Source: Fibrobacter succinogenes subsp. succinogenes S85
GTDB lineage: Bacteria > Fibrobacterota > Fibrobacteria > Fibrobacterales > Fibrobacteraceae
Length of the DNA stretch: 32,000 bases
Assembly: GCF_000146505.1 (NCBI RefSeq)
Contig: NC_017448.1
Coordinates: forward strand, 1,650,001-1,682,000
Direction: 5' to 3'
Below the pieces are notes generated by a model, which ran no database searches, was not told where the DNA came from, and saw nothing but the letters and a program-made list of their open reading frames with translations. Shown in pieces: positions 6,138 through 27,894 of this stretch. A program made the translations under genes and the position numbers. Each line of letters opens with the position of its first letter. Within the stretch, counting starts at the first letter, position 1.

Positions 6138-6139
6138 AA

Positions 6140-6862: not shown

Positions 6863-6865
6863 ACG

Positions 6866-10852: not shown

Positions 10853-12199
10853 TTATTCGTCATCCTCATCAGTTTCGCCGGTTTCAGCTTTTTCCGCATC
10901 TGATTCAGCCTTTTTATCGCAAGCACCATCTTCTACTTTTGCGGGATTCCAAAATTTTGAGATAAGAAGCCAAAATACAATAGCGTACGACAAATCGATA
11001 AACACATCCTGCAAAAAACCATAACCAAAAATGCCCCACAAGACAATGACTCTGGCGTAGTAATACAAAAGGAAATGGGACAAAAGCGGATTACTAATCT
11101 TTTTGGCAAGCCACCCGGCGGCTATAGTCAACAAGGCTACGACAAAAGCCCCGATTGTACCAAACTCAAGATACAAATCCCCAAAGAGAGTCTTGAAATA
11201 ATACATGTTCACTCGGTAGACGTTACTCCAAAATTCTCGGACCGCGTCTACGCCATACTTTGAATCCGGGAGTTCAAACCCACCAAACCATTCCAGCAAT
11301 TTCGGGAAGAATCGAAGCCCATACGTATGGATATCTGTCGAATCCCAATAAACCAGTCCCAAATTTAAGAAGGGTTCCCCAAAATAGCGCATTATTCTGT
11401 TCAACGCAACATCGACATCACCATCGACACGGGCAAAAGAAATGATTATCGCATAAAAGCCCAACAAGCCCAACACGGCAAACGCTATACCATAGATTTT
11501 TTTCTTGATGTCTACAGGAATCTCGTCCTTGAAATTCGTGTAAATATAGACAAGGGCAAAGAAATTGAAAAACAAGGATCCACGGCTTCCCTGTAAAACA
11601 GAGGGTGTGACGGTCGCTCCAAAACCGACAATCAAAAGAAATAACGCCATCATCGATTTTTGGTTCTTTACAATCCGGTAAAACTGCAAATAGAGAAAAA
11701 TCGGCATCACACAGATGGACAAACGTCTAAAAACCTTAGACAGAATCATTTCGATATCGGAACCATACTTTTGCCCCAGATCTCCGGAAACACTCATATG
11801 GTACGCATCGCCCAAGTCACTTGCCGCCCCTAGCTGATACCCTTCCAGGAAAAAGAACAGGTGTCCCAGCATAAAGAAAAGAAAAATCTTTGAAAACAAG
11901 GACACCCTCTGGGCATCCCACCCTATTTCAAATTTGGGAACAACCTTCAACGGGCTCATCACCCCCATCATCATGATAAACATGAGAAAATAGGGAAGAT
12001 AGCTCAAATACTCTAGACTTCTGGAATCGCGTATTTCTTCCTGGTATAAGCCAATATCGAATACATACGCCCCCATGCAAGAAACAACAGCGTACAGTCC
12101 TATAGAAAATAAATAAAAGGCGCTATATTCACTTTTCTGCTTATAGCACCATGCAAACCACACTATATACAGGAATGCATTAGTTAAGAATACTTCCAT
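10853..12199 (-). CDS. wzy: Multi-pass membrane protein, probable repeat-unit polymerase (Wzy-like / O-antigen polymerase-type)
   Basis: 448 aa, hydrophobic throughout with many TM-like segments and no soluble catalytic domain. It sits between the GTs and wzx, as in Wzx/Wzy loci. It has an unusual acidic C-terminal tail (AESDAEKAETGETDEDDE). The family call rests mainly on context. Confidence 0.55.
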   Translation of the reverse strand: MEVFLTNAFLYIVWFAWCYKQKSEYSAFYLFSIGLYAVVSCMGAYVFDIGLYQEEIRDSRSLEYLSYLPYFLMFIMMMGVMSPLKVVPKFEIGWDAQRVSLFSKIFLFFMLGHLFFFLEGYQLGAASDLGDAYHMSVSGDLGQKYGSDIEMILSKVFRRLSICVMPIFLYLQFYRIVKNQKSMMALFLLIVGFGATVTPSVLQGSRGSLFFNFFALVYIYTNFKDEIPVDIKKKIYGIAFAVLGLLGFYAIIISFARVDGDVDVALNRIMRYFGEPFLNLGLVYWDSTDIHTYGLRFFPKLLEWFGGFELPDSKYGVDAVREFWSNVYRVNMYYFKTLFGDLYLEFGTIGAFVVALLTIAAGWLAKKISNPLLSHFLLYYYARVIVLWGIFGYGFLQDVFIDLSYAIVFWLLISKFWNPAKVEDGACDKKAESDAEKAETGETDEDDE

Positions 12200-12286
12200 A
12201 CCGTCATCGTAAAAACAGACTACAACATCCCGTTATCAAGATGTCTAATGTAGCGAAAATATATAAAATATGCGAATCGCTTTTTA

Positions 12287-13744
12287 TCAGCGGCTCTTTC
12301 CGAAATGGATTTTCTGCATCATTTTACGCAGTTCCGTTACCACAAGCTCATTCTTGTTGAATTTCAGGTTTATCAACGCAAAGATACAGGCCATGAGCAA
12401 GCCTTCTACAGCAATCCGTAACCCATACGGGACTTCTAAATAACAGCTAAAAACAATCGGCACCGGGAGATAGCATAACGCCCAGCCGATGTTCTTCAAT
12501 AGGATTTTCGCGTCAAATACAAGGCCCAGGATTTTTTTCACCAGGTACATTCCAACAACAAGAACAGACAATTCAGACAAGCCCCAGGACATCGCAGAGC
12601 CAACGGCCCCCAAACGAGTCGTCAATACAATATTGCCAAGAATGCCAATCACAGCACCGACGGAACTGACTATGAAAATGGACTTGTTCGATGTCGAAGC
12701 CATCAGGAATTGCTGAATAACAATTTGCTCCATTCCAATAATCAGCAACAGGAAAATAACGATTTTAAACGGCAAAATGGCACCTTCATAACCATTACCC
12801 GCAATAATGAAAATAATTTCATCGGCGCAGAACAGGCAGGCAATAATAATGGGCAACGAGACAATGGTCAAAATATTAAATGTATCATCTGCTATCTTTT
12901 GAATTTTTTCGCGATTTCCATCACTCAACAATTCACTAACCTTGGGGACCATCACATTGGTAAAAGCAGTAAAAACACCCATTAGGATACTATACATCTT
13001 CGTTGCTGTTGCAAAGTAGCCAACTTCCTTATCCCCAGAACAAAACCCAAGAAATACCATATTGAACGAAGTATACATATAGGTCAGCATACGATAATAC
13101 CCAAACACCAGAACAGGCAATATGAAGATTCTAAAGCTGACCTGGGATAATGAAAATGTTCTAAATTTTTTCGAATAATTCCAATTCCACAAGGCGTTCA
13201 CAAAAACAGATCCCACTGTCAATGCGTAGTAGATTATAGCATCATCTGGAGAGCGAATAAAGGCAAAAACGCCTACAACATAAAGAAAGCGAACCGCAAT
13301 AGTCCTAAGCGTTATATATTTGAATTCCTGCAAGCCCTCAAAAAGCCATTCTATCAAAAATAAGCTAAAGAATAGCTTTACAAGCCCTATCCAAAGAAAG
13401 TCCCTATATACTTGAAGACTGGGGACATAGAGCGTGCAAAGGACGAGTACCACAACAGCAATAATGGTACCGACAAAGTTAATCGCCATCAGGCTTGAAA
13501 AGGTCTTATTTCTCCGTTCAAGATTACTTTTGCACCTTGCAATTTCGCGAACGCCAAAAGAGCCAACGCCTAAAGTAGAAAAAAGGACGAAATAATCAAT
13601 CAGACTATCGACAAAATTGCATATACCGATATTGCTTACACCAAGAACTCTCGATACATAAGGATATGTAATTAAAGGGAAAAGGTACTTACTTAAAGTA
13701 AGCAACAAGTTATATGCAAAATTCTTTTTGACTGATTTGGGCAT
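12287..13744 (-). CDS. wzx: Oligosaccharide-unit flippase (Wzx, MOP superfamily polysaccharide biosynthesis protein)
   Basis: 485 aa and about 12-14 hydrophobic segments. The N-terminus KKNFAYNLLLTLSKYLFPLITYPYVSRVLGVSNIGICNFVDSLIDYF is typical of PST-family flippases. Confidence 0.82.
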   Translation of the reverse strand: MPKSVKKNFAYNLLLTLSKYLFPLITYPYVSRVLGVSNIGICNFVDSLIDYFVLFSTLGVGSFGVREIARCKSNLERRNKTFSSLMAINFVGTIIAVVVLVLCTLYVPSLQVYRDFLWIGLVKLFFSLFLIEWLFEGLQEFKYITLRTIAVRFLYVVGVFAFIRSPDDAIIYYALTVGSVFVNALWNWNYSKKFRTFSLSQVSFRIFILPVLVFGYYRMLTYMYTSFNMVFLGFCSGDKEVGYFATATKMYSILMGVFTAFTNVMVPKVSELLSDGNREKIQKIADDTFNILTIVSLPIIIACLFCADEIIFIIAGNGYEGAILPFKIVIFLLLIIGMEQIVIQQFLMASTSNKSIFIVSSVGAVIGILGNIVLTTRLGAVGSAMSWGLSELSVLVVGMYLVKKILGLVFDAKILLKNIGWALCYLPVPIVFSCYLEVPYGLRIAVEGLLMACIFALINLKFNKNELVVTELRKMMQKIHFGKSR

Positions 13745-13761: not shown

Positions 13762-14592
13762 CTAATCATCATCGAAGAATCGGACGACAACATTATGCGT
13801 TTGAATTTTGTCATCTTCAGGAACTTTATTCCAATCCCCATAAAGGTCTGTAAGATAGGCATCAACATTACAGGGAGCACAAAACATGGAACCTTCAAAT
13901 TCAATACGCCCTATCGGGAAAATATACTTCTTGTATCTTTTTTCATCCCAAGGCGCTCCATAAGGCAATCTGTAATAATCATTTCTTTTATGGTATATGA
14001 ATCGCAAAAGGGGCGGGATGATTTTTTTTATTACCACATAATTTAACGGCAACAACGGTCTCAAAATTTTTGCAATTATCGAAGATGATAATATAACACG
14101 TTGAACCGCTTTTTCATAACAGAACATCATCTTTTTACAAAAAAAATCGCTTACTTGGTCATCCTGATAAAAAATATCCACCTGCACACCTCGATATTTT
14201 CTCATTTTGTGAAGCGGAGAATCCTGCAAATATTCACTTTTCAAATCACGTAGCACATCCCACGTAGAGTAAAAACCGCTATCAGTTTCATCGCACTGCA
14301 GCACAAACTCTTTACTAGGATTTTGCGTAAGCATTATTTTTTTAAACTTTAGATAACTCTCCCTGGTCATACAAATATCCACATCGTCATCCCAAGGAAT
14401 AAAGCCTCCATGCCTAGCGGCACCCAGCAAGGTTCCGCAATCTAGCCAATAGTCAATTTCATTTTCCAAACAGATGCCGTCTATAAACTTAAGCATTTCA
14501 AGCATCCGAAGTTGAGCCCGACGCAAAATTGATCCATCAGGATTAAAGCGCTTTCGAAATTTAGCTTGCAAATCTCGATCAATCATCAGCAT
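13762..14592 (-). CDS. licD: LicD-family phosphotransferase (transfers a phospho- or phosphono-headgroup, or alditol-phosphate, from a CDP/CMP-activated donor)
   Basis: DYWLDCGTLLGAARHGGFIPWDDDVDICM is the LicD nucleotidyltransferase-fold signature including DxD. Length 276 aa. It lies between the phosphonate module and wzx. Confidence 0.85.
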   Translation of the reverse strand: MLMIDRDLQAKFRKRFNPDGSILRRAQLRMLEMLKFIDGICLENEIDYWLDCGTLLGAARHGGFIPWDDDVDICMTRESYLKFKKIMLTQNPSKEFVLQCDETDSGFYSTWDVLRDLKSEYLQDSPLHKMRKYRGVQVDIFYQDDQVSDFFCKKMMFCYEKAVQRVILSSSIIAKILRPLLPLNYVVIKKIIPPLLRFIYHKRNDYYRLPYGAPWDEKRYKKYIFPIGRIEFEGSMFCAPCNVDAYLTDLYGDWNKVPEDDKIQTHNVVVRFFDDD

Positions 14593-14630
14593 CTCCTCAT
14601 TTGTCCATGTTATTTCAAATGCAGGTGGCT

Positions 14631-15812
14631 CTACTTTTTCGGTGCAAACGGCTCGATGATGTTCTTGATGATAAAGTCGGCCGTCTTCTCGATATCCTCG
14701 AACGCAACGCGTTTCGGCAAGTCGACGTTGAAAGCCTTCTTCACCTTCGCGACGAGTTCGTCGGTATAGACGAGCGTGCCGTTTTCCACATTCTCAATAC
14801 CGTCGCAGTAGATGGACTTGCGGTTCGCGGCACGCATGTCATCCATACTGAAGAGCGTCGTATCGAACGTAACTTCCGCCTTTGCGCCATCGATAAGCAC
14901 CGGGTAGCCGCCGATTTCGCCATTGACACCGGGAGCATGCACCTTGGTCACCGTCTTTTCGCGGAGAGCCGTCAAGATGGAATCGATGATGTTGAAATTG
15001 CTCGAAGCGTTCATCATGTTGCGCTTCTGGTCCACCGGCATCGGGATGGAGCAGGCAGCCAGCACTTCGGTCTGGTCAAACGGCAAATCTTTGCCATCCT
15101 TCTTGAAGTTCAAGAGCAGCGTCTGGCCTTCAGCATGGCCTTCCTTCGAAATCACCACATCGTGGAAATGGCTCACGGCGAGCGTCACATCGATATCGTT
15201 CAAGTTGTCGATGTTGTACTTTTCGGCCATAAAGAACTTCATGCGCGGAATGAGGTGGTTCAGGTTGCCGCTACCAAAATCAAAATATGTCTTACCGGCG
15301 GACTTGAGCCAAGGAATCACTGCGTCGGAATACGAGGTATTGATGGTCACTGCATTGGAGCCCACCTTTTCGTAGGCGGCCATGATATTTTTCGCATAAC
15401 GGATAGAGAGCGGAGACCAAATGCCGTAAGCGCGCAGGTTGCTCCACGAGATGCTTCCGTACTTGAGTCCGGAATAGACGCGGCTGCTGTTCACGATAAA
15501 GTCCGGATTCGCCTTCTTGATTGTCGCGGCGATGCTGTCGACATCGTTCAAATCGCAGTCACCGAGAATTTCAATCTGGCTACGCAGTTCACGACGGATT
15601 GTCGCCGCCGTGCGAACGATGTTCACATCCATCTGCATCTTGGCTGCATTGCGGCCAGCAACCACAATTTTCAGCTGCGGGTCACGGAGACTCACCAAAA
15701 AGTCGAGCAGGAACGTACCGACGCTCCCGAGCCCAATAATCATAATCGTAATCGTCTCGTTCTTTTCGACCTTGGACTTGAGCAAGGCTATTTTCTTGTT
15801 CAGGATTTCCAT
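14631..15812 (-). CDS. NAD(P)-binding two-domain oxidoreductase, saccharopine/carboxynorspermidine-dehydrogenase-like (tentative)
   Basis: N-terminal Rossmann GxGxxG (IMIIGLGSVGTFL) followed by KIVVAGRN. Length 393 aa. No PLP, ThDP or metal motifs seen. The family assignment comes from overall layout and memory only. Coding status is strong: it reads in phase, with tight spacing inside the operon. Confidence 0.5.
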   Translation of the reverse strand: MEILNKKIALLKSKVEKNETITIMIIGLGSVGTFLLDFLVSLRDPQLKIVVAGRNAAKMQMDVNIVRTAATIRRELRSQIEILGDCDLNDVDSIAATIKKANPDFIVNSSRVYSGLKYGSISWSNLRAYGIWSPLSIRYAKNIMAAYEKVGSNAVTINTSYSDAVIPWLKSAGKTYFDFGSGNLNHLIPRMKFFMAEKYNIDNLNDIDVTLAVSHFHDVVISKEGHAEGQTLLLNFKKDGKDLPFDQTEVLAACSIPMPVDQKRNMMNASSNFNIIDSILTALREKTVTKVHAPGVNGEIGGYPVLIDGAKAEVTFDTTLFSMDDMRAANRKSIYCDGIENVENGTLVYTDELVAKVKKAFNVDLPKRVAFEDIEKTADFIIKNIIEPFAPKK

Positions 15813-15815
15813 ATC

Positions 15816-16559
15816 TTACTCCATAAGTTCGCGAACAATGTTGTAGTCCGCAACGGTGTTACAGTTATACCAGGCATCAAACGTGACCACATCATATTCT
15901 TCACGGGAAAGCTTGTTGAAATACGCCTGGATAATCTCGAGATTCGTTCCCTGAAGTTGCTTTTCCGTCAAGGAAGCGACAGCCTCGTGCAGCTTTTCTG
16001 CCGACCGGAACTTCCACATCTGCGCAGAATTGAATACCGCGAGGAACGGCTCCGGAATCGTGAGCGAAGAATGGTTCGTGTCGTATAGGTAATGCGGACG
16101 GCCATCCGTCGATACGTAAAGAGCCACGGCCTTGTTCGAATAAATGGGTTCGCGATTGATCGTGAGCACGCTCTTTTCGCTGTCGTAGACCTTCTTGAAA
16201 TTTTCCTTCAAGAAGAACAGGTCACCTTCAACGAACGTGACATCACCCGGTTCCTTCACGGCCTCGATGCCCTTGTACAGGCTATAGCCCGAGCCGTAAT
16301 CCTTGAAGTGCTCGTTATAGACAAGTTCAATCTTATCGCCATACACCTGAAGATTCTGCTTCACGTATTCTTCGAGAGCGGAATAGAGGTAGCCGCCCAC
16401 GATGATGTACTTGTCGTATTCGCCGCAATTTTTCAAAAGCTGCGGCAAAAGAGCAAACTTCGGAGAATCCTTATAATAAAGGCACTTCAGGGTTTCCTTT
16501 TCGGTATCCCTGTTAAAGCGGGTTGCCGTCCCGGCAACAGTAATAATCAGGTATTTCAT
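15816..16559 (-). CDS. LicC/IspD-fold nucleotidyltransferase (candidate phosphonate or phospho-headgroup cytidylyltransferase, PntC-like)
   Basis: N-terminal IITVAGTATRF is the G-x-G-t-R-f/l NTP-binding loop. Internal NEHFKDYGSGYSLYKG and an acidic EGDLFF motif. Length 247 aa. ATGA overlap with the upstream SDR stop (16556-16559). Confidence 0.62.
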   Translation of the reverse strand: MKYLIITVAGTATRFNRDTEKETLKCLYYKDSPKFALLPQLLKNCGEYDKYIIVGGYLYSALEEYVKQNLQVYGDKIELVYNEHFKDYGSGYSLYKGIEAVKEPGDVTFVEGDLFFLKENFKKVYDSEKSVLTINREPIYSNKAVALYVSTDGRPHYLYDTNHSSLTIPEPFLAVFNSAQMWKFRSAEKLHEAVASLTEKQLQGTNLEIIQAYFNKLSREEYDVVTFDAWYNCNTVADYNIVRELME

Positions 16560-17554
16560 CTTTCAATACTCTTTACGCACATTTCAAGGCCTTCTTCCAG
16601 CGTAACGACCGGTTTCCAGTGCGTACGCGTACGGATCTTGTCTGTGTTGAGCAGGCGGCGTTCCGGGTCGGACTTGCGATAACCTTCGAACTTGATTTTC
16701 ACATCGTCCATGCCCATCTTCTTCGCAATCAGTTTCACGAGATCCACGATGGAAATTTCTTCTTCGGTCGCGACATTATAGACGGTACCGTCGAGCGCTT
16801 CCGGCGATTCCATGAGTTCCATCACGGCGCGGCAGCTGTCGATATTGTGGAGGAACGTACGCTTGTTGACCTTCGAGTTTTCGAGCAGCGTGACCTGCGG
16901 CTTTTCAAGAAGGTTGTTGATGATGTGCGGGATGATATGGTCCGCAAAGCGTTCATGCTTGCTGTAGACGTTGGCAAAGCGGATCGAGCAGCCCTTGATT
17001 TTGCCCTTGTCCACAGCATCCTTCATGAAGAATTCCGTGAGGAGCTTGCCGACAGCGTAGCTTGTGCGCTGGCTGTGTTCTGCTGTGGCCATCACCAGGA
17101 AGTCTGATTCACGAACGCCACCATTCGCATTCCAGGACTGCATGGAATAAACTTCGGAAGTCGAGCAGTTGATGTAGGTATCCGCACCAAGAGCGATCGC
17201 CATTTCCAAGAACGTCTTCATCGAGATGACGTTTGTAAGGAACGTGTGTTCCACTTCGTAGAAATGCTTCGTATGCACGACTGCGGCGCAGTTGATGAAA
17301 ACCAGGCGGCCGGAATAAGAGCCTTTGAGACTCTTCACCTTGTCGGCGACAGCGGCCATGTGTCCGGCATTGTTGATGTCGTATTCAAAAAAGATATAGT
17401 CATCACGACCGACCAAGTCCTTCACCGTATCGATAGAACTGGCAAAGAAGTTGTCAAAACCGACAACGATGTTTTCTTCTTTCAGCAGTTGGTGCGAAAG
17501 TTCACTGCCGGTCATGCCTGTAGCACCACTTATGACATACAGATTTTTCTTCAT
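16556..17554 (-). CDS. NAD(P)-dependent extended SDR (epimerase/dehydratase/reductase family)
   Basis: VISGATGMTGSEL (GxxGxxG), catalytic YxxxK (SYAVGKLLTE), 332 aa. Confidence 0.8.
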   Translation of the reverse strand: MKKNLYVISGATGMTGSELSHQLLKEENIVVGFDNFFASSIDTVKDLVGRDDYIFFEYDINNAGHMAAVADKVKSLKGSYSGRLVFINCAAVVHTKHFYEVEHTFLTNVISMKTFLEMAIALGADTYINCSTSEVYSMQSWNANGGVRESDFLVMATAEHSQRTSYAVGKLLTEFFMKDAVDKGKIKGCSIRFANVYSKHERFADHIIPHIINNLLEKPQVTLLENSKVNKRTFLHNIDSCRAVMELMESPEALDGTVYNVATEEEISIVDLVKLIAKKMGMDDVKIKFEGYRKSDPERRLLNTDKIRTRTHWKPVVTLEEGLEMCVKSIER

Positions 17555-17567
17555 GTTAAGCCTCTGT

Positions 17568-18296
17568 TTAAATTCCTAAAGTCAGACGATCCTTGTAGAA
17601 TACATCTACCTCGTCCGTATAAAGATCCTGTTCCGCCACGATATCGTACGGAACGCAAACATGCTCGTATTCCGTCGTTTCGGTATCGAGAATCCCGAAC
17701 TGCGCGCAGGGATTGATATTCCGCGGCTGCCCGACAGAACCGGGATTAATAAAAACCGTTTTTTTCTTGTTTCTCGTGCTCGGGGAATCCGCCTTGAAAA
17801 GCACCTCGAAGTAGTGGCACACATGGGAATGCGCAGTCAAGACATAATCGAATTCCGCGTATTCTTCGCGAGTGAGTTCCACAGGTGTAAACTTGCCCCA
17901 ATACGGGTCGCCCAAGATGCCATGCACCAGCAGGAACTTCTTGCCGTCAATTTCCAGGGAACAAGTGCCATCGCGATTCATCTTGTTATTGATAAAGTCG
18001 ATGGACTCCTGAGAGAGGCGCTTTTGCGTATAGTGGAGGATAGCGCGCCCGCGGTCTGTCGCGAATCGGGTCGTGTCGTTGTCCATGACAGCCTTCTCGT
18101 GGTTTCCCCAAATCTTCGCAACAAACTTGTCATCCATACCGCGAATCATGTCCACGATTTCGTTCGGGCGCATGCCGTAATTGACAAGGTCTCCCAGCAA
18201 CACGAATTTGTCGACATGGCGACGTCTAATTTCTTCGAGCACCGCATTCAATGCAGTCACGTTCGCATGGATATCCGACAGCAGGGCGAGTCGCAT
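17568..18296 (-). CDS. Calcineurin-like metallophosphoesterase (YfcE/MJ0936-type, Metallophos_2)
   Basis: All metallophosphoesterase motifs appear in order: LSDIH (DxH), LLGDLVNYG (GDxxxxG), WGNHE (GNHE), LVHG, TAHSH (GH-type), NPGSVGQPR. Length 242 aa. 2-bp spacer to the ppd stop. Confidence 0.82.
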   Translation of the reverse strand: MRLALLSDIHANVTALNAVLEEIRRRHVDKFVLLGDLVNYGMRPNEIVDMIRGMDDKFVAKIWGNHEKAVMDNDTTRFATDRGRAILHYTQKRLSQESIDFINNKMNRDGTCSLEIDGKKFLLVHGILGDPYWGKFTPVELTREEYAEFDYVLTAHSHVCHYFEVLFKADSPSTRNKKKTVFINPGSVGQPRNINPCAQFGILDTETTEYEHVCVPYDIVAEQDLYTDEVDVFYKDRLTLGI

Positions 18297-18298
18297 TT

Positions 18299-19426
18299 TT
18301 ATTTCCTCAGGAACTCCATAAGAGCGTTCTTGTTCTCGATAGGCGTCGTTGTCGGACGGCCCAGATCCTTGCGGTTACCCTTCTTCACCTTGACTTCGAG
18401 GAGCACGGGGCCCTTCATGCCCTTGAGCTTTTCGAGCACAGCAGCAAGCGATTCCTTGCTATCGGCGGTCAGAGCATCACGGTATCCCACGGCACGGGCA
18501 ACAGCAGGCAGGTCAATCTTCAAACCTACAGTCGGCTGGCCACCCACGGAGTCGTGTGCGCCGTTGTTGAATACCACGTGGACGTAGTTTGCGGGGGACT
18601 TGCTTGCGACAATCGCCATGGAACCCATGTGCATGATGGTCGCACCGTCGCCATCAAAACACCAGACCTTGCGGTCGTCCTTTTCCATCGCAATGCCAAG
18701 CGCAATCTGCGAGGCATGTCCCATGGAGCCCACCGTCAAAAAGTCACGTTCGTGACCTTCCCCCTTCTGGGCGCGGTATTCAAAAAGTTCACGGCTGATC
18801 ATGCCCGTCGTAGAGACAATGACATCCTTTTCGCCAAGCGAGGCCGCCACCGTCTGGATAGCTTCTTCGCGGCTCATCGTGAGGTCATTTTTCTCGACGC
18901 TCTGGAGTTTGTAATCCTCGAATGTGTCCTTTTCGATGACGAGCGCGTAGACCTCGCCCGTTTCCTTCATCGTCTTGACGGCCTTCGCGATCTGCTTCGT
19001 AGCCTTGTCCTCTTCCTTGCAGAGTACATCGTAGTTCACGCCCATCGTGTTCAAAATCCCGGTCGTCACCTTGCCCTGCTTCACGTGCTGCGGCTCGTCA
19101 TGAACGCCCGGGCGGCCACGCCAGCCAATCAAAAGCAGCACAGGAATGTTATAGACTTCCTTGTCCGTAAGCGATGCGAGCGGATTGATGATGTTCCCTT
19201 CGCCGGAATTCTGCATATAGACAACGCCAATATTACCCGTCGCGAGATGATAACCAGCGGCTAGCCCCACGGCGGCGCCTTCGTTCGCGGCGATCACGTT
19301 GTGCTTCGCGTCCATGTGATCCGCGATATAGGCGCAAATATTCTTGAGCAAGGAATCGGGAACGCCGGCATAAAAATCAATACCGTAAGAGCCAAGCGTG
19401 TCGATAAAAAACTTCGGAGAGATCAT
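18299..19426 (-). CDS. aepY: Phosphonopyruvate decarboxylase (ThDP-dependent)
   Basis: N-terminal FYAGVPDSLLK motif is typical of Ppd/AepY. ThDP motif GDG...NN is present (CFDGDGATIMHMGSMA...VVFNNGAHDSVGGQ). Length 375 aa. It lies immediately (2 bp) downstream of the PEP mutase gene. Confidence 0.9.
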   Translation of the reverse strand: MISPKFFIDTLGSYGIDFYAGVPDSLLKNICAYIADHMDAKHNVIAANEGAAVGLAAGYHLATGNIGVVYMQNSGEGNIINPLASLTDKEVYNIPVLLLIGWRGRPGVHDEPQHVKQGKVTTGILNTMGVNYDVLCKEEDKATKQIAKAVKTMKETGEVYALVIEKDTFEDYKLQSVEKNDLTMSREEAIQTVAASLGEKDVIVSTTGMISRELFEYRAQKGEGHERDFLTVGSMGHASQIALGIAMEKDDRKVWCFDGDGATIMHMGSMAIVASKSPANYVHVVFNNGAHDSVGGQPTVGLKIDLPAVARAVGYRDALTADSKESLAAVLEKLKGMKGPVLLEVKVKKGNRKDLGRPTTTPIENKNALMEFLRK

Positions 19427-19428
19427 GA

Positions 19429-20739
19429 TTACTTCTTCATCGTTCCGGGAATAAGGTTCAAAATCTGCTTGATAGGCATGCAGTAGTCGTTTGAAGCTTC
19501 GAGGCTACGGCTGTGCGTAAGGATGGACTCCGCACACTTCACCATCGCCGGGTATGCAGACCTAAGCATGTGGTTTGCATAGATGACAATGTTGATACCC
19601 CAAGTCGAAAGTTCCTCTTCAGTAAACTGGTTGTAGGTCGTGGGTACTGCAACAATCGGCGTATGAGCGTCCTTCTCGCGGAAACGCTTGCAGAATTCCT
19701 TGATGTCTTCGCCGCTTTTGTCCTTGGAATGGATCATGATGCCATCAGTACCGGCGGCCACGTAGGCATGGCAACGTTCCAAGGCATCGTCCACGGACTT
19801 GCCCGCAATGAGCGATTCGCAGCGGGAGATCACCATGAAGTCGTCCGTAATCTGGGCTTCCTTGCCCGCACGTATTTTTGTGCAGAAACCTTCAATCGTA
19901 TCCTGCGATTGAATAGCATCTGTACCAAACAGAGAGTTCTGTTTGAGGCCAACCTTGTCTTCAATGATGACCGCAGAAATGCCAAGGCGTTCGAGCGTGC
20001 GCACAGTAAAGCCAAAATGTTCGACCTTTCCACCCGTATCGCCATCAAAGATAACCGGCTTTGTCGTGACTTCGAGCGTATCATTCAAGTCATGCAGACG
20101 AGTCGTAAGGTCCACAGCCTCGATATCCGGCTTCCCCTTACTCGTGGAATCGGTGAGCGAAGAAGACCACATACCGTCAAACTCGCGAACGCAGCCGTTG
20201 ATTTCAACACTCGTATGTTCAGCAATCAAGCCCGTAAGGCCATTATGAGATTCCAAAATACGAACAATCGGCTTGGCCGCAATCAGGCGGCGCAGTGAAG
20301 AAAGTCTCGCCTGTGGTGTCGTACCGAGGCTATCCATTTCCTTTTTGAGGCCAGCAGAAGTAATGCCCTTGGTGTAAGGGATTTCAATAACCTTGCCACC
20401 TAAGGATTCCATAACCTTGAACACCTCGTCACGGATATACTTGTCCGGGCCGTAAAGCCAGTCATCACCATGAATGATATAGTCCGGCTTGTACCTCTTC
20501 AAGTTTTCAACATAACTCCATTCATCCTGGGGAACAATCTTTGATACGCCCTTGATGTTCTCGATGACGTTCTTGCGCTGCTCGTAATTCAGATACGGAA
20601 GGCGCTTGTGCGTTGCAATCGCCTTATCCGTAAAAAGTCCAATCATCACATCACCGTACTTTGCGCCTTCATTGATGATGTTGATAAGGCCCGGGTGCAT
20701 GATGTCACCAATCATTCCTAGATATACTGTTTTTGCCAT
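19429..20739 (-). CDS. aepX: Bifunctional cytidylyltransferase-domain / phosphoenolpyruvate mutase (Fom1/AepX-like architecture)
   Basis: Residues ~1-135 form a CTP_transf_like (TagD/CCT-type) domain: GMIGDIMHPGLINII (HxGH position reads H-P-G-L) and YTKGITSAG (cf. RTxGISTS). Residues ~145-436 form an isocitrate-lyase/PEP-mutase fold with the Ppm-diagnostic EDK-X5-NS (EDKVGLKQNS, nt 19933-19962; I verified the codons by hand). Length 436 aa. Confidence 0.92.
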   Translation of the reverse strand: MAKTVYLGMIGDIMHPGLINIINEGAKYGDVMIGLFTDKAIATHKRLPYLNYEQRKNVIENIKGVSKIVPQDEWSYVENLKRYKPDYIIHGDDWLYGPDKYIRDEVFKVMESLGGKVIEIPYTKGITSAGLKKEMDSLGTTPQARLSSLRRLIAAKPIVRILESHNGLTGLIAEHTSVEINGCVREFDGMWSSSLTDSTSKGKPDIEAVDLTTRLHDLNDTLEVTTKPVIFDGDTGGKVEHFGFTVRTLERLGISAVIIEDKVGLKQNSLFGTDAIQSQDTIEGFCTKIRAGKEAQITDDFMVISRCESLIAGKSVDDALERCHAYVAAGTDGIMIHSKDKSGEDIKEFCKRFREKDAHTPIVAVPTTYNQFTEEELSTWGINIVIYANHMLRSAYPAMVKCAESILTHSRSLEASNDYCMPIKQILNLIPGTMKK

Positions 20740-22527: not shown

Positions 22528-23652
22528 TTACCAAACTTCCTTTTTGGCACATGCAAGTGCTTCAGCAATAACATGGTGCATATCAAAATACTTGTACATT
22601 CCAAGGCGGCCACCAAAAATCACATTTTTCTCCGATTCCGCTAACGCCTTGTACTGTGCAAAGAGGGCATTATTTTTCTCGTCATTCATGGGGTAATAGG
22701 GTTCGTCACCATGTTTCCAGGCTGCCGGATATTCCCTAGTCACCACAGTATGGTCCGTTGCGACCCCACCCTGACATCCAAACTCAAAATGCTTATGTTC
22801 AATAATACGGGTATACGGGATTTCCGCTTCCGTATAGTTCACAACGGCGTTGCCCTGATAGTTTTCTTGCGGCAAATCTTCCGTCTCAAAACGCAGCGTA
22901 CGGTATTCCAGTTCACCGAACCTATACCCGTAGAACTCGTCTATCATACCCGTGAAAACAACTTTCTTTGCAGAGACAACAAGCGATTCACGTTCCTTAA
23001 AGAAATCAACGCCAAGGCGCACTTCAGCACCTTCAAGCATTTTCTCGACAATCTGCGTATAACCGCCAACAGGGATTCCCTGATACTTGTCATTGAAATA
23101 GTTGTTGTCGTAGACAAAACGGACCGGCAATCGCTTGATAATAAACGCAGGGAGTTCCGTACACTTACGGCCCCACTGCTTTTCGGTGTAGCCCTTGATG
23201 AGCTTTTCATAAATGTCGCGACCGACAAGAGACAGCGCCTGTTCTTCCAGATTGGCAGGTTCACGACCATTCAACGCAGCAAGAGCCTCAGCACGTTGCT
23301 CATCGATTTTAGCCTTCGCCTCAGCCGGAGTCTTGATGTTCCACATCCTGCTAAAAGTATTCATGTTAAAAGGCAAATTATACAGTTCATCCTTATAACA
23401 TGCGATGGGGCTATTCGTATAGCGATTAAACTCAGCAAACTGCTGAACGTAATCCCAAACTTCCTTGTTGCTGGTATGGAAAATATGGGCGCCGTACTTA
23501 TGTACGTTGATGCCCCCTACATTTTCTGTATAGACATTGCCTGCGACATGGTTACGCTTGTCTATCACGAGGACTTTCTTTCCTCGCTTGATAGCTTCAT
23601 GTGCAAAGACTGCTCCAAAAAGACCAGCCCCGACAACAAGGTAATCAAACAT
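22528..23652 (-). CDS. glf: UDP-galactopyranose mutase
   Basis: FAD-binding VVGAGLFGAVFA, HKYGAHIFHT, and C-terminal GRLGMYKYFDMHHVI. Length 374 aa. Confidence 0.93.
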   Translation of the reverse strand: MFDYLVVGAGLFGAVFAHEAIKRGKKVLVIDKRNHVAGNVYTENVGGINVHKYGAHIFHTSNKEVWDYVQQFAEFNRYTNSPIACYKDELYNLPFNMNTFSRMWNIKTPAEAKAKIDEQRAEALAALNGREPANLEEQALSLVGRDIYEKLIKGYTEKQWGRKCTELPAFIIKRLPVRFVYDNNYFNDKYQGIPVGGYTQIVEKMLEGAEVRLGVDFFKERESLVVSAKKVVFTGMIDEFYGYRFGELEYRTLRFETEDLPQENYQGNAVVNYTEAEIPYTRIIEHKHFEFGCQGGVATDHTVVTREYPAAWKHGDEPYYPMNDEKNNALFAQYKALAESEKNVIFGGRLGMYKYFDMHHVIAEALACAKKEVW

Positions 23653-23655
23653 TCC

Positions 23656-25026
23656 TTACTCCGCCTTGCCCTTACCGATACTCGTCACTTCAAAGCCGAT
23701 CTTCCTGAGGGCGTCCGCATCCAAGATGTTGCGGCCATCAAATACAAATGCCGGTTTTGCCATCGAACTGTAAATGCGCTTCCAGTCAAGCTCGGCAAAG
23801 CACTTCCATTCCGTGCAAACAACAACGGCGTGGGCGTCTTCGGCAGCCTTGTACGGGTCTTCTTCGAACGAGACCTGTTCAATCACGTCCTTGAGGTCGC
23901 GCTTTGCATCCGGGATAGCCTTCGGGTCGGTCACGACAGGCAGTGCATGTTCGGCGAGCAAGTCACGCACAACGAGGTTCGCCGGGCTTTCGCGGGTATC
24001 ACCGGTATTGGCCTTGAACGCAAAACCGAACACGGCAATTTTCTTGCCTGCAATCGTATTGAACATGGTTTCGAGCATGCGGTCCACCACGCGGTGCGTC
24101 TGCCACTCGTTAATCTTCACGACGCTTTCCCAGTAAGCGGCGACTTCCGGGAGTCCGTAATAACCGCAAAGGTACACGAGATTCAGAATGTCCTTCTTGA
24201 AGCAGCTACCACCGAAACCGATGGATGCCTTGAGGAACTTGGAACCAATGCGGCGGTCCTTGCCCATCACATAGGCGACTTCGTCGACATCGGCACCAGT
24301 GCGTTCGCAGAGAGCGCTAATGGAGTTGATGGAACTGATGCGCTGTGCGAGGAAGGCGTTCGCCGTGAGCTTCGTGAGTTCGGAGCTCCAGAGGTTCGTC
24401 GTAAGGATGCGGTCACGCGGCACCCAGTGGGCGTACACGTCTACGAGCTTCTGGCAGGCTGCGAGGCCCGATTCTGTCTGGTGGCTACCAATGAGCACAC
24501 GGTCCGGTTCAAACAAGTCGTTGATGGCCGTTCCTTCGGCCAAAAATTCCGGATTCGAGAGGACTTCAAAGTGGAGGCCCTTGTCGTTCGAATTCAGGAT
24601 ACGTTCCATGGCCGCAGCGGTGCGGACCGGGAGCGTCGACTTTTCAACGATAATCTTACCTTCGTCAGCAATTTCCAAAATGTTGCGGGCGGTCTTTTCC
24701 CAGTACTGCAGGTCTGAAGCCTTGCCGGCGCCATGGCCAAACGTTTTCGTCGGGGTATTCACCGAAACAAAGATAATGTCCGCTTCCTTGATGGCGGCAG
24801 GAATATCCGTACTAAAGAACAGGTTACGGCCGCGAGCGCGCTTTACAACGTCATCCAAACCTGGTTCAAAAATCGGAAGATTTTCGCTATTCCAGGCATC
24901 AATACGTGACTGGTTGATATCAACTACGGTAACCTTAACATCGGGACACTTATCGGCGATAACGGTCATGGTGGGGCCACCGACGTAGCCAGCACCAATG
25001 CAAACGATTTTAGTTTCGAAACTCAT
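23656..25026 (-). CDS. ugd: UDP-glucose 6-dehydrogenase (long, eukaryote-like type)
   Basis: N-terminal Rossmann [12 protein letters not shown] and catalytic cysteine motif [10 protein letters not shown]. Length 456 aa. Confidence 0.93.
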
Positions 25027-25113: not shown

Positions 25114-27894
25114 CTATTTAAAGAGAGCTGAAACTTCACTGACGCTTTCCGGCAGAATCACTCGCGTGGGGCTAGTCTCGCCGTCACTCCAACCTACAAA
25201 AGTACTTCCCATAAGAAGCTCCGCGCTAAGCACCACCGGGAATCCCGTAAAGAAATTCACAGTCATTTCAGGCTCATCAACGGGGAGGTTATGCACAAGA
25301 ATCTTACCAGGGCCATTTACAGACAAGGTTACAGGAGCCTTTTTACCGAGTGCAAAAAAATCCTGCAATTCGTCGTAAATAACACCCGGGCGGTCCATCG
25401 CAAAATTTTTGATGGCGTTAAGCTGTTTTGTCATTTTCGAAGCACTCAGCCCCCAGCGTTTTTGATCGCGAGGAATTTCCGACTGGATTTCTGCCATCAT
25501 CTTCTCGATGCGTGCAAGCACTCGCGAACTTTCAAAATTCATCTGCAAGAGCACCGCCATCCGATTGATAAACGCGGCCTTGAAGCCTTCGTTTTCAAGC
25601 AATCTTCGGAGCAATAATGTGAATTCAGGCCCGTTTGGCCAAGAATCCCCATCTTCTGCCGTAGCAAATTCAAATATGTTATTCGTATATTTGCTATAAT
25701 CATTCCCAAAACCAAAATCAAGATCATACAGGAACCATTTCCACGGAGTTTTGGGGCTTGAACTACGCCACTTTTTGAGATTATTTGCGGGCCAGTCACG
25801 GTTATTTGCAAAAAGCTCCGTATGCATGTAATTGATGAAATTATCGACATCTATTTGCGATGCGATATAAGCATAATTTTCTTCGTCATCCAAATTATTT
25901 GATTCCAGCCAATCCGTCAACGCCACGTAATCAACAGTCGAGCCCGCCGACACGGCATTATCCGCCTTGAGCAAATCTATTTTATCCGGATCAAGTCCGT
26001 AATGCGTTTCAAAATAGTCTGCCGTCGAGCGTTCACGAATGCTGTGGATACCGAAATATTCGCCGTTATAATACACGACTGCAAATCGCCCGCGCTGGTA
26101 ATCAACGCCGAGTCCTTCGCTCACGGAACTTGCCAAGCGGTCGCGAATGTAGTCGTTTCCGCAATTGCTCCCATTATTGCGCAACAGGAACACCTTGAAC
26201 TTGTTCAGCTCCGGGAAATCAGGGAACAGCGGATACTTCAGGTGAGAATCACCATACTTTTCACGGAACGTAATCGCCACCGACTTCTTGTCTTTTTGCC
26301 TGCTGTAATTGCCAAAAATCTTGAGTCCTGCATTCTTCGCAAATGCAGGCGCATCCGTCCCTGGTTCCATCAATTCCACCGTCACGGGGATTTCCTTGTC
26401 AAGCCAGTAATTGGCGCCGTAATGAGGTTCCTTGCTCTGCGCATACGGGCCTTCCACATAAATACCTGTATCCGGGTCAAAAAGCGAATTCGGGTCGGCA
26501 GCAAGGAACACCGCAGGCACAGCAGGCGCACTTTCGAAAACGTAAGTGCGAGTCACCACATTGCTCGGGAGGCTTTGCGGAGCGATTTTTGCACAACGTA
26601 TTACCGTCGTCTTGTTGATTAAAATACTCTTCTGAAATACAGTCTCTTCCGAAGGCAATTTGCCACCTGTTTCGCACACGGCATTATTCGTACTTTCAAG
26701 ATTTAGAACAAAAGGTTCTGTATAAAATCCCGAAGGTGGGAACAGCAAGGTGTCAATATTTTCTTCTCGAGTATAAGCTAGCGTATTTTCCGTATAACCA
26801 TACGGCGAAGGGTCTGCGTAGCCCCAGCCATTTGCATAGCTCCAAGTTTTCCCTAGAGGCAATTCCGGGTAAGATACAGAATCCACAATCGCCGTATCAG
26901 CATTCACCAAGTAAAGCGAGCCGCCTTTTTTCGAAAGCTTGAAACCCGCATGCGGTTCATGGCCGCGATTGCGAGCAATGTAGCTGAAAACCTTAAGAGT
27001 CACTTCTTGCGATTCATTCGCATCGGGGCTAAACCGCGTCCCGTAAATATTCGCCAAATCAGGGAAAGTCGTTCCCGTAGGGAGAGCCATGCGGTAAACC
27101 GTTGAAGAATCCCCCGTCCCTTCAAGGACCATTTCGTAACCTTTCCAGTCATCAATATCAGGCTGTGCCAAGCGCACAGAAACTTTGCGGCCCTTTGTAA
27201 TGTACGCCTGCATCAAGATTTCATTGGCAGCCGAAATATCTAGCACATCCGAGGGGTCGGTGCTCCCCGTCCCAACGAAAAGCGAAATGGACGCCCATCC
27301 AAGTTCCTCGTTTTCACCCAATTGCATCACCGAGCCAATGCGGCGCTTTCCATTTTCGCTAAAGCAATTTTTCTTGTATCCCGGTAACGGATCGGCATAG
27401 CTGTAACCCGGCGGATCGCTTTCTGCATCCGTCCATGTCCAGCAACCAGGCCCAATCATATCAATAGAATCATGCGGCATCACGTAATCGGGATAGTTCT
27501 TCCCCGACAAGAAAATGACCAAAAACGAGCTCGGCGCAATTTTCACATTGCCAAGTTTCCACTTGAAAGGTTCATCTTGCGAGTCCGTCAAGTACATTCC
27601 AGACAAATTCACCGTATCTGCAGACGTATTGAAAAGTTCTACCCAGCCCGCGTCATCGCCTTCGTGATCCTTGTAATCAATGTTAACCGGGTCGACCTCC
27701 GTGAAAATCACAGGGCCACCCGCAAAAGGGAGGTTCGCGCCATCTGCATGACCATTTGCAGAAGAACTACTCCCCGAATCAAAATTCAGCGAACTTGGAT
27801 TATCGTCTGAGCACGATGACAAAAACAGTGCAACAAAAAGAAGAGGAGCAAAAGTCCTACAGATCTGAGACGAAAGATTATTCCAACACACCAT
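25114..27894 (-). CDS. Lipoprotein with lamin-tail domain (LTD) + CotH-type atypical kinase domain + C-terminal beta-repeat
   Basis: Lipobox LFLSS|C (Cys28). LTD-like segment VIFTEVDPVN...GWVELFNTSADTVNLSGMYLTDS. CotH core: FGNYSRQKDKKSVAITF, LLRNNGSNCGNDYIRDRLA, RFAVVYYNGEYFGIHSIRER, NLKKWR, WFLYDLDFGFG. Length 926 aa. Confidence 0.85.
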   Translation of the reverse strand: MVCWNNLSSQICRTFAPLLFVALFLSSCSDDNPSSLNFDSGSSSSANGHADGANLPFAGGPVIFTEVDPVNIDYKDHEGDDAGWVELFNTSADTVNLSGMYLTDSQDEPFKWKLGNVKIAPSSFLVIFLSGKNYPDYVMPHDSIDMIGPGCWTWTDAESDPPGYSYADPLPGYKKNCFSENGKRRIGSVMQLGENEELGWASISLFVGTGSTDPSDVLDISAANEILMQAYITKGRKVSVRLAQPDIDDWKGYEMVLEGTGDSSTVYRMALPTGTTFPDLANIYGTRFSPDANESQEVTLKVFSYIARNRGHEPHAGFKLSKKGGSLYLVNADTAIVDSVSYPELPLGKTWSYANGWGYADPSPYGYTENTLAYTREENIDTLLFPPSGFYTEPFVLNLESTNNAVCETGGKLPSEETVFQKSILINKTTVIRCAKIAPQSLPSNVVTRTYVFESAPAVPAVFLAADPNSLFDPDTGIYVEGPYAQSKEPHYGANYWLDKEIPVTVELMEPGTDAPAFAKNAGLKIFGNYSRQKDKKSVAITFREKYGDSHLKYPLFPDFPELNKFKVFLLRNNGSNCGNDYIRDRLASSVSEGLGVDYQRGRFAVVYYNGEYFGIHSIRERSTADYFETHYGLDPDKIDLLKADNAVSAGSTVDYVALTDWLESNNLDDEENYAYIASQIDVDNFINYMHTELFANNRDWPANNLKKWRSSSPKTPWKWFLYDLDFGFGNDYSKYTNNIFEFATAEDGDSWPNGPEFTLLLRRLLENEGFKAAFINRMAVLLQMNFESSRVLARIEKMMAEIQSEIPRDQKRWGLSASKMTKQLNAIKNFAMDRPGVIYDELQDFFALGKKAPVTLSVNGPGKILVHNLPVDEPEMTVNFFTGFPVVLSAELLMGSTFVGWSDGETSPTRVILPESVSEVSALFK

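Follow-up and report, generated by a model that had tools for sequence, protein, structure and literature searches.

How does a bacterium finish a phosphonate head group for its surface glycans when the enzyme that usually does so is not encoded at the locus? Microbial surface phosphonates are usually explained by three genes, which encode phosphoenolpyruvate (PEP) mutase (Ppm), phosphonopyruvate decarboxylase (Ppd) and a transaminase. We addressed this question at a polysaccharide locus of Fibrobacter succinogenes subsp. succinogenes S85, in a stretch of 32,000 nucleotides (NC_017448.1, positions 1,650,001 to 1,682,000; hereafter the window, within which positions are counted), where ppm and ppd are followed by genes for a metallophosphoesterase, an extended short-chain dehydrogenase/reductase (SDR), a DUF6564 protein and an orphan oxidoreductase. 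We propose that these six genes form a self-contained cassette, mobile between genomes, and that the cassette encodes an aminotransferase-independent route from phosphonoacetaldehyde (PnAA) to a tailored phosphonate head group for surface glycans. We give this explanation, taken as a whole, a probability of about one half.

An initial annotation, made from the sequence alone, had not recognised this gene combination as a described pathway, and the literature agrees. Our search returned no characterisation of the gene set and no mention of DUF6564, and the combination surfaces only as an ‘unclassified post-Ppd’ neighbourhood (Li & Horsman, 2022, PMC8942020). According to that survey, F. succinogenes, gene cluster family (GCF) 60, encodes Ppm and Ppd and none of the seven known branch-point enzymes, and its exopolysaccharide carries an N-hydroxyethyl derivative of 2-aminoethylphosphonate (AEP), N-(2-hydroxyethyl)-AEP; its authors regard the absence of the AEP transaminase (AEPT) as favouring reductive amination with ethanolamine. 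The same survey describes proteins with PF12850 and PF16363 domains that F. succinogenes has in common with the archaeal GCFs 869 and 685, as well as a GCF 599 that comprises Clostridium tetani and Clostridium botulinum, with methyltransferase and sugar genes (PMC8942020).

A conserved six-gene cassette

Seven tightly packed open reading frames (ORFs) occupy 13762-20739 on the minus strand (Table 1). Downstream from ppm they are separated by 2, 2 and 13 bp, an ATGA overlap and 3 bp, with a further 38 bp before the LicD gene; the gene set, its coordinates and these gaps are as the initial annotation gave them. That annotation was also right to call the first two products a genuine Ppm with an EDK-X5-NS motif and a Ppd dependent on thiamine diphosphate (ThDP). 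Ppm scores 403 bits against TIGR02320 (cut-off 320) and carries the motif as EDKVGLKQNS at residue 260, while Ppd scores 523 bits against TIGR03297 (cut-off 312) and carries the ThDP motif GDG-x26-NN at residue 259, so that both exceed their equivalog cut-offs with motifs intact. Pfam and NCBIfam scans of every sizeable ORF found no pyridoxal phosphate (PLP) enzyme in the 32-kb window, consistent with the earlier statement that the locus lacks a PLP aminotransferase; the 448-aa ORF is a membrane protein.

The cassette had first been drawn to include LicD. When the window was compared with other Fibrobacter loci by blastn, one common block emerged, 14632-20739 at 84-92% nucleotide identity, and the flanks, including LicD and Wzx, failed to align. 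The conserved unit is therefore the six genes at 14631-20739; LicD falls beyond the block, with the partner in that position varying from locus to locus.

A pattern scan with the 393-aa oxidoreductase family, limited to one genome per species, confirmed 225 loci, of which 80 were kept (L001-L080). The nearest are rumen Fibrobacter metagenome-assembled genomes (MAGs) at 95-99% protein identity. Partners were counted by tblastn of the seven window proteins against the 80 kept loci, and the count of full sets was restricted to the 62 with sufficient flanking DNA. Ppm, Ppd, the metallophosphoesterase, the SDR and DUF6564 all lie beside the oxidoreductase in 52 of these 62. Carriers include Fibrobacter, Bacteroidales, Clostridia, one spirochaete and Methanobrevibacter, and the gene order differs among them: Ppm-Ppd-metallophosphoesterase-SDR-DUF6564-oxidoreductase in Fibrobacter and Bacteroidales, metallophosphoesterase-SDR-DUF6564-oxidoreductase-Ppm-Ppd in Clostridia and the spirochaete, and Ppm-metallophosphoesterase-SDR-DUF6564-oxidoreductase-Ppd in three Methanobrevibacter MAGs. 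The same six genes also occur in C. tetani and in one Elusimicrobia contig, where the oxidoreductase belongs to a subfamily with only about 33% identity to that of the window. The four extra genes thus belong with ppm and ppd, as had been suggested, both by their co-occurrence among the kept loci and again at this greater distance; the combination lies far beyond chance and recurs across several phyla and Archaea.

Base composition follows the host. The block in the window has a G+C content of 0.51 versus 0.41 in the neighbouring glycan genes, and across carriers the G+C of the module tracks that of the host, from 0.30 to 0.53, which indicates resident genes and not contamination. Contamination was considered as the origin of the Methanobrevibacter loci and rejected, as the three MAGs have a distinct gene order in common and the G+C of the module (0.33-0.38) equals that of its flanks.

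De novo clustering of all ORFs showed that, LicD aside, every other family accompanies the module in about 30% of loci at most. The commonest other neighbours are GT2 glycosyltransferases, a DegT sugar aminotransferase, Wzx, an ATP-grasp protein and a hexapeptide acyltransferase. One Bacteroidales variant, found in 208 blocks of the assembly collection, is a complete capsule locus with the module, Wzx, LicD, Wzy, glycosyltransferases, an initiating transferase and Wzz, and no PLP enzyme was found in it. Two genomes carry two copies of the module each: contig CAMHAM010000004.1 (L036 and L039) and the Fibrobacter MAG RUG10152 (L011 and L014), the latter with one full copy and one without the phosphoesterase and DUF6564.

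The C. tetani locus is a flagellar glycosylation island with NeuB, a Maf/MptE-like protein and a CMP-nonulosonate synthetase, in which the six genes are joined by a methyltransferase and sugar genes; a clostridial flagellin glycan that bears phosphonate is already on record for Clostridioides difficile (PMC8861647). In the C. tetani and Elusimicrobia versions a sulfatase-type transferase stands where LicD otherwise does. Both also have a 52-aa ORF after the oxidoreductase gene (L085, 11095-11253; L089, 9101-9259; 52% identical) that is absent from the lineage of the window.

These loci connect neighbourhoods that were previously listed apart. GCFs 60, 599, 869 and 685 of Li & Horsman resemble the cassette in having ppm, ppd, no known branch-point enzyme, and PF12850 and PF16363 proteins; the C. 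tetani locus found here matches GCF 599, and the Methanobrevibacter loci have the same six genes. Unlike our analysis, the survey keeps these families separate and names only the two accessory domains. The separate GCFs appear to share one six-gene module, and its boundaries, DUF6564 and the orphan oxidoreductase are newly identified here.

Branch-point enzymes of known pathways are rare beside the cassette

The initial annotation had suggested a census of whether this gene order anticorrelates with the aminotransferase, and it does so strongly. The class-V PLP aminotransferase of AEP clusters, AepZ, was found by an NCBIfam scan of 117 flanking-ORF cluster representatives and then used as a phmmer seed in a census covering all 2453 ORFs of 81 loci (the window and the 80 kept loci), including a second batch of 90 cluster representatives. 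A genuine AepZ occurs in one of the 81, an Odoribacter MAG (L034; TIGR03301, 462 bits), and as a seed it matched none of the 2453 ORFs except itself. It lies at 4813-5937 of that locus, inserted between Ppd and the metallophosphoesterase along with a hexapeptide acyltransferase and an ORF of 277 aa, giving a natural hybrid in which the four-gene set and the AEP route are combined. When four further PLP families supplied the seeds, 26 ORFs were recovered, mostly sugar enzymes of the LegC, PseC, RfbH and DegT types. There were two exceptions, an FrbH-like nucleotidyltransferase-aminotransferase fusion near the module of L070 and a class-I aminotransferase in L002. In the latter, a Fibrobacter MAG, the Ppd slot within the module is empty (3689-6200); the class-I aminotransferase is 17 bp from a Ppd of only 50% identity, which is encoded upstream and on the other strand.

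This distribution bears on a rival explanation, in which an AepZ/PhnW-type aminotransferase encoded elsewhere makes AEP and the four genes tailor it, for example by N-alkylation through condensation of an oxo acid with the amine. With AepZ amid the module, L034 indicates that AEP synthesis and the four genes are compatible, L002 places an aminotransferase beside its second Ppd, and an active site of the lactate/malate dehydrogenase (LDH/MDH) type, which we describe below for the oxidoreductase, would suit a 2-oxo acid partner. We nevertheless judge this explanation unlikely. The other 80 of the 81 loci lack AepZ, the complete Bacteroidales capsule locus is without any PLP enzyme, and the F. 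succinogenes neighbourhood has no AEPT (PMC8942020); moreover, the cassette's own Ppd makes PnAA on site, and an unlinked enzyme would then be needed across several phyla and Archaea.

A second known branch leads to 2-hydroxyethylphosphonate (HEP) through a PhpC-type phosphonoacetaldehyde reductase, an iron alcohol dehydrogenase (Fe-ADH). HEP-type clusters for comparison came from plasmid ppm matches. Those of Fulvitalea axinellae (pFA2) and Segatella copri consist of PntC-Ppm, Ppd, Fe-ADH, and LicD or a TagF-like transferase. They have the same Ppm fusion (66% identity to the window Ppm in Fulvitalea, 51% in Segatella), a Ppd, one hydride-transfer enzyme and a transferase in common with the cassette, which differs in lacking Fe-ADH and in having the oxidoreductase, metallophosphoesterase, SDR and DUF6564. 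The Pfam and NCBIfam scans found no Fe-ADH in the window, while the comparators L081 and L082 do carry one. Fe-ADH genes occur in two of the 81 loci, in both cases outside the six-gene module. In L057 (9333-12470) a second Ppm (663 aa) and an Fe-ADH directly adjoin a full module, and this locus holds two phosphonate pathways side by side; in L071 the Fe-ADH (1052-2167) lies about 5 kb upstream of a full module.

Predicted functions of the additional enzymes

Having defined the cassette, we considered what its four non-canonical enzymes might do. The 393-aa oxidoreductase had been labelled saccharopine-dehydrogenase-like, a label that we withdraw. Its only Pfam match, to Sacchrp_dh_NADP, is sub-threshold (23.5 bits, cut-off 25.1) and covers profile positions 1-77; the Pfam scan found no Sacchrp_dh_C domain, and in distant relatives the match is confined to the Rossmann N-terminus of Sacchrp_dh_NADP, the C-terminal domain being matched by none. 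Hidden Markov model searches of the PDB, for which the queries were the protein itself and its family profile, found no sequence relative, the PPR-repeat matches being spurious. The profile and structure searches proposed in the initial annotation point to an LDH/MDH fold for the oxidoreductase and a cytidylyltransferase fold for DUF6564. For the oxidoreductase, the AlphaFold model (predicted local distance difference test, pLDDT, 88.9; predicted template-modelling score, pTM, 0.91) has LDH/MDH structures as all of its top 50 Foldseek PDB matches (probability 1.00, best E 1.7e-9), with target TM-scores of 0.56-0.66.

Residues G27, G29, R54, D163, G180, G182, N183 and H215 are invariant across the oxidoreductase superfamily. 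No Ldh_1_N or Ldh_1_C match was found by Pfam, and an hhalign alignment to Escherichia coli Mdh, which is not significant (probability 0.2%), pairs H215 with His177 and GSGN-LNHLIPR with the FGVTTLD--IIR stretch of Mdh, with Asn at the Asp position. We read N158..D163, G180-S-G-N-L-N-H and S-H215 as possible counterparts of the LDH motifs SNPVD, GSGxNLD and GEH, and Arg54, after strand beta-2, suggests NADP(H) as the cofactor. The likeness to the LDH/MDH superfamily consists of a two-domain predicted fold, and the invariant His and GxGN may occupy the catalytic-His and ‘GxGxxLD..R’ positions; the protein differs in its length (393 aa versus about 310), in that the Asp partner of the catalytic His is apparently Asn-His, in its NADP-type Rossmann motif, and in its phosphonate gene context. 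We propose that it is the branch-point enzyme that consumes PnAA.

Close homologues of the oxidoreductase number in the thousands, all of them unnamed, and in a library clustered at 50% identity the superfamily has 474 representatives at E <= 1e-3 and 58 at E <= 1e-30. Remoter relatives, 28-30% identical to the P0255 subfamily query, are found in amine and amino-acid contexts with Aminotran_3, alanine racemase and M20 peptidase genes (L087, 8001-17173; L088, 6504-9122). One of them adjoins an alanine racemase gene, 4.5 kb from a phosphonolipid cluster of Ppm, aminotransferase, nucleotidyltransferase and CDP-OH-transferase genes, and another follows immediately after a class-III aminotransferase gene.

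DUF6564 has only a weak nucleotidyltransferase profile match beside PF20202. Its AlphaFold model (pLDDT 93.9) matches 4jd0 (IPCT), 1jyk (LicC), 2y6p (KdsB) and 6pd2 (PntC-AEPT) in Foldseek at E values of 1e-12 to 1e-13, and its invariant motifs, VAGTATRF and EGD, accompany a LicC/PntC-type fold with an N-terminal G-x-G-T-R-type loop and an acidic metal site. From this model, DUF6564 is probably the CTP:phosphonate cytidylyltransferase of the cassette. The initial annotation had called it the second nucleotidyltransferase, counting the domain (PF01467) fused to the N-terminus of Ppm (20650-20739) as the first. That DUF6564 is a nucleotidyltransferase agrees with its predicted fold; that it is a second one is probably wrong, since in this lineage the fused domain has lost the second His of HxGH. 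Fibrobacter and Bacteroidales have HPGL where the family has HxGH, and the fusions of Clostridia and Archaea keep HxGH but have lost the second signature, with YTYNENV in place of a (R)TxGISTT-type motif, so that in each lineage among L001-L080 the fused domain is without one of its two signature motifs. In contrast to the HPGL of the window, the Fulvitalea AepX, from an HEP-type cluster that has no other nucleotidyltransferase, keeps HPGH and the second signature as well. The degenerate signature of the Ppm-fused domain thus also suggests that DUF6564 is the working cytidylyltransferase.

The SDR reaches no NCBIfam equivalog cut-off (dTDP-glucose dehydratase 95 bits, cut-off 365; UDP-xylose synthase (UXS) type 31.6, cut-off 294). 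Its likeness to UXS is weak (phmmer E about 1e-12) and full-length. GxxGxxG, DNFF after strand beta-2, STSEVY (STDEVY in dTDP-glucose dehydratase) and YxxxK all align with UXS/ArnA-type SDRs, the last three with human UXS 4lk3 (also 4gll). These motifs, with their NAD+-type site, suggest NAD+-dependent oxidation of a nucleotide-linked substrate, coupled to its decarboxylation or to an elimination and followed by reduction; unlike the UDP-glucuronate of UXS/ArnA-type enzymes, this substrate would presumably be a CMP-linked phosphonate. The metallophosphoesterase shows all metal-binding motifs (DIH, GD, GNHE and AHSH) and falls below the cut-off of the YfcE subfamily model; the closest relatives in the PDB are 3rqz and the Ap4A hydrolase/phosphodiesterase 3qfm, and its probable substrate is a nucleotide-linked compound or a phosphoanhydride. 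LicD holds the DxD motif in WDDDVDI, and other loci have different LicD paralogues or sulfatase-type or TagF-type transferases; we propose LicD as the locus-specific partner that would move the activated phosphonate to the glycan.

Such resemblances raise the possibility that the substrates of the four enzymes are confined to the nucleotide-sugars or polyol phosphates of the polysaccharide and that their genes are mere neighbours of ppm-ppd; the phosphonate would then be attached in unmodified, PnAA-derived form, if it is attached at all. The closest characterised relatives of the SDR are indeed nucleotide-sugar enzymes, and DUF6564 also resembles nucleotidyltransferases for sugar phosphates and inositol phosphate. 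This explanation is nonetheless very improbable, since the four genes travel with ppm-ppd and with no sugar pathway across capsule, flagellin-glycan and archaeal cell-wall loci that are otherwise unrelated, and since ppm-ppd alone would leave reactive PnAA without a consuming enzyme.

A proposed route and its main rival

The initial annotation proposed NAD(P)H-dependent processing of PnAA, which is plausible and which the literature on the F. succinogenes glycan favours. By family-level assignment, Ppm turns PEP into phosphonopyruvate, which Ppd decarboxylates to PnAA. The oxidoreductase would then consume PnAA by hydride transfer, holding the place that AepZ has in AEP clusters and Fe-ADH in HEP clusters, either by condensing it reductively with a donor that is an amine or an amino acid, or by reducing it to HEP. 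DUF6564 would make the CMP conjugate, the UXS-like SDR would remodel the CMP-linked side chain by oxidation, decarboxylation or elimination, and reduction, and LicD would take the phosphonyl group off its CMP donor and attach it to the Wzx/Wzy polysaccharide. The metallophosphoesterase may hydrolyse a nucleotide-linked or phosphorylated intermediate or by-product, which is the least certain of these steps.

The product is most likely an N-substituted AEP, for example N-(2-hydroxyethyl)-AEP, rather than plain AEP or HEP. We argue that it is neither of the plain compounds from two loci already described, L057 with its separate second Ppm and Fe-ADH and L034 with AepZ inside the module. In a more specific and tentative version of the proposal, nitrogen would enter without PLP: the oxidoreductase would condense PnAA with an amino acid such as serine to give an opine-like N-(2-phosphonoethyl) amino acid, DUF6564 would add CMP, and the SDR would oxidise, decarboxylate and reduce the conjugate to CMP-N-(2-hydroxyethyl)-AEP. 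Transferases of the LicD, sulfatase or TagF type would place this head group on capsules, flagellin glycans and archaeal cell walls. This serine route, although speculative, is chemically economical and employs every enzyme except the phosphoesterase.

The main rival is an HEP-type pathway with a non-orthologous reductase, in which the LDH/MDH-fold enzyme reduces PnAA to HEP, DUF6564 makes CMP-HEP, and the head group is free of nitrogen; the SDR and metallophosphoesterase would add oxygen-type tailoring (for example to dihydroxyethylphosphonate) or serve another purpose. Carbonyl reduction would suit the LDH/MDH fold and a conserved His that resembles a catalytic one, the minimal loci L070 and L078 mirror the Ppm-Ppd-Fe-ADH-LicD layout of Fulvitalea and Segatella, and the Pfam and NCBIfam scans found no recognisable nitrogen-handling enzyme in the cassette. 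It is a possibility that we doubt, given that F. succinogenes, with a ppm neighbourhood that has the same accessory domains, carries N-(2-hydroxyethyl)-AEP (PMC8942020). HEP formation by the cassette would also make the Ppm and Fe-ADH beside the full module of L057, and the Fe-ADH upstream of that of L071, redundant, and would leave three strictly co-inherited extra enzymes without a role.

Several points weigh against the aminotransferase-independent route to a tailored head group as we propose it. The simplest reading of the LDH/MDH fold would be a conversion of PnAA to HEP and, to our knowledge, enzymes of this fold are carbonyl reductases, not reductive aminases. The mapping of the active site onto LDH/MDH rests on an insignificant alignment and modest fold similarity (TM-scores of 0.5-0.65), and the functions of all four non-canonical enzymes are predicted from sequence and models. 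Our explanation gives the metallophosphoesterase no firm role. An unlinked AepZ elsewhere in the genome is possible, as its absence is known for the 32-kb window. Finally, some modules are reduced: L070 and L078 keep only Ppm, the oxidoreductase, Ppd and LicD and so resemble HEP-type clusters, and L011 lacks exactly the metallophosphoesterase and DUF6564.

Together with L015, L045 and L054, which have no intact SDR, these variants suggest that the oxidoreductase is the core branch-point enzyme, that DUF6564 and the phosphoesterase form a pair, and that the SDR carries out a separable tailoring step. The reduced module of L070 (2219-17356) comprises three LicD genes, the oxidoreductase, Ppm and Ppd among flagellin genes, which make the contig's Muribaculum label doubtful; the FrbH-like fusion of this locus (nucleotidyltransferase-Aminotran_1_2) is 2 kb away.

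Other genes of the window

The Wzx and Wzy-like genes (10853-13744) mark the acceptor polysaccharide pathway. The genes at 5115-9130 constitute a second pathway for a non-sugar substituent within the same locus, and the polysaccharide probably carries both polyol-phosphate and phosphonate. Pfam and NCBIfam scans identified the remaining genes of the window as encoding Wzc, glycosyltransferases, Glf, Ugd and DUF4422. The first 654 bases excepted, the largest non-coding gap in the window is 87 bp, and a promoter and terminator scan returned sites no more frequently than in shuffled sequence. Two plus-strand ORFs, at 14601-16088 (495 aa) and 22711-24717 (668 aa), were rejected as genes; they are antisense shadows of minus-strand genes, and such shadows cluster across loci only through conservation of the opposite coding strand.

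Table 1. Features of the window, with positions counted from its first nucleotide.
Feature	Position	Strand	Remarks
PEP mutase (Ppm) with N-terminal CTP-transferase-like (PF01467) domain	19429-20739	-	First cassette gene; TIGR02320, PF13714, PF01467
Phosphonopyruvate decarboxylase (Ppd), ThDP-dependent	18299-19426	-	TIGR03297
Metallophosphoesterase, Metallophos_2 superfamily	17568-18296	-	PF12850, 69 bits
Extended SDR, nucleotide-sugar epimerase/dehydratase/decarboxylase type	16556-17554	-	PF01370 (Epimerase), PF16363 (GDP_Man_Dehyd)
DUF6564 protein, predicted LicC/IPCT/PntC-fold nucleotidyltransferase	15816-16559	-	PF20202, 311 bits
Orphan oxidoreductase, 393 aa, LDH/MDH-like predicted fold	14631-15812	-	Last gene of conserved cassette; sub-threshold Sacchrp_dh_NADP match
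LicD-family phosphotransferase	13762-14592	-	PF04991, 106 bits; outside conserved block
Wzx flippase	12287-13744	-	Polysacc_synt, 105 bits
Wzy-like multi-pass membrane protein, 448 aa	10853-12199	-	No Pfam match; hydropathy gives multiple hydrophobic, probably membrane-spanning segments
TarJ-like SDR, IspD/TarI-like cytidylyltransferase, GDPD + DUF4996 protein, TagF-like CDP-polyol phosphotransferase	5115-9130	-	
926-aa protein with CotH kinase domain and lamin-tail domain	25114-27894	-	Directly beside polysaccharide locus

Discussion

Two known systems bear comparison with a cassette of this proposed kind. In the biosynthesis of FR-900098, FrbH is a nucleotidyltransferase/decarboxylase, tailoring takes place on CMP conjugates, and FrbI is a nucleotide hydrolase. 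As in that cluster, a nucleotidyltransferase, candidate enzymes for a nucleotide-linked phosphonate and a phosphodiesterase-type hydrolase are found together here. The components differ, with DUF6564, the SDR and the metallophosphoesterase versus FrbH, FrbG/F and a Nudix hydrolase, and so does the end, decoration of a glycan versus a free antibiotic; the likeness would be one of mechanism only.

The aepX-aepY-aepZ and PntC-LicD systems (Bacteroides fragilis; Treponema denticola Tde1415; Rice et al., 2019, PMC6697681) are directed to surface glycans. There, too, Ppm and Ppd make PnAA, Ppm is often fused to a cytidylyltransferase-like domain, and the CMP-phosphonate is moved by LicD-type enzymes. 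Unlike them, the cassette has no class-V PLP aminotransferase (AepZ/PhnW, TIGR03301/TIGR02326) and has four other enzymes instead, and DUF6564, although it has the LicC/PntC fold, is placed in a Pfam family of its own.

We regard the cassette as a variant of phosphonoglycan head-group biosynthesis that is spread widely and has so far gone uncharacterised. It represents a second, widespread solution to the making of surface phosphonates, carried by rumen Fibrobacter, by Bacteroidales and Clostridia of human and animal guts, by C. tetani and by Methanobrevibacter, and, as several of these carriers are cultured isolates, it is directly testable. Cultured carriers include Bacteroides intestinalis AF14-32, Hoylesella saccharolytica JCM 17484, Prevotella sp. 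ne3005, Butyricimonas muris and Roseburia sp. 1XD42-69. A solved pathway would give functions to DUF6564 and to the orphan dehydrogenase family, would explain how N-(2-hydroxyethyl)-AEP is synthesised, and would add a branch point to the schemes used in genome mining for phosphonates. If nitrogen does enter by a PLP-independent route, this would be a new type of reaction for the LDH/MDH fold, the first function for a DUF6564 protein and a new phosphonate branch point. A solved pathway would also identify a phosphatase-resistant surface epitope that may affect recognition by the host, by phages or by the immune system.

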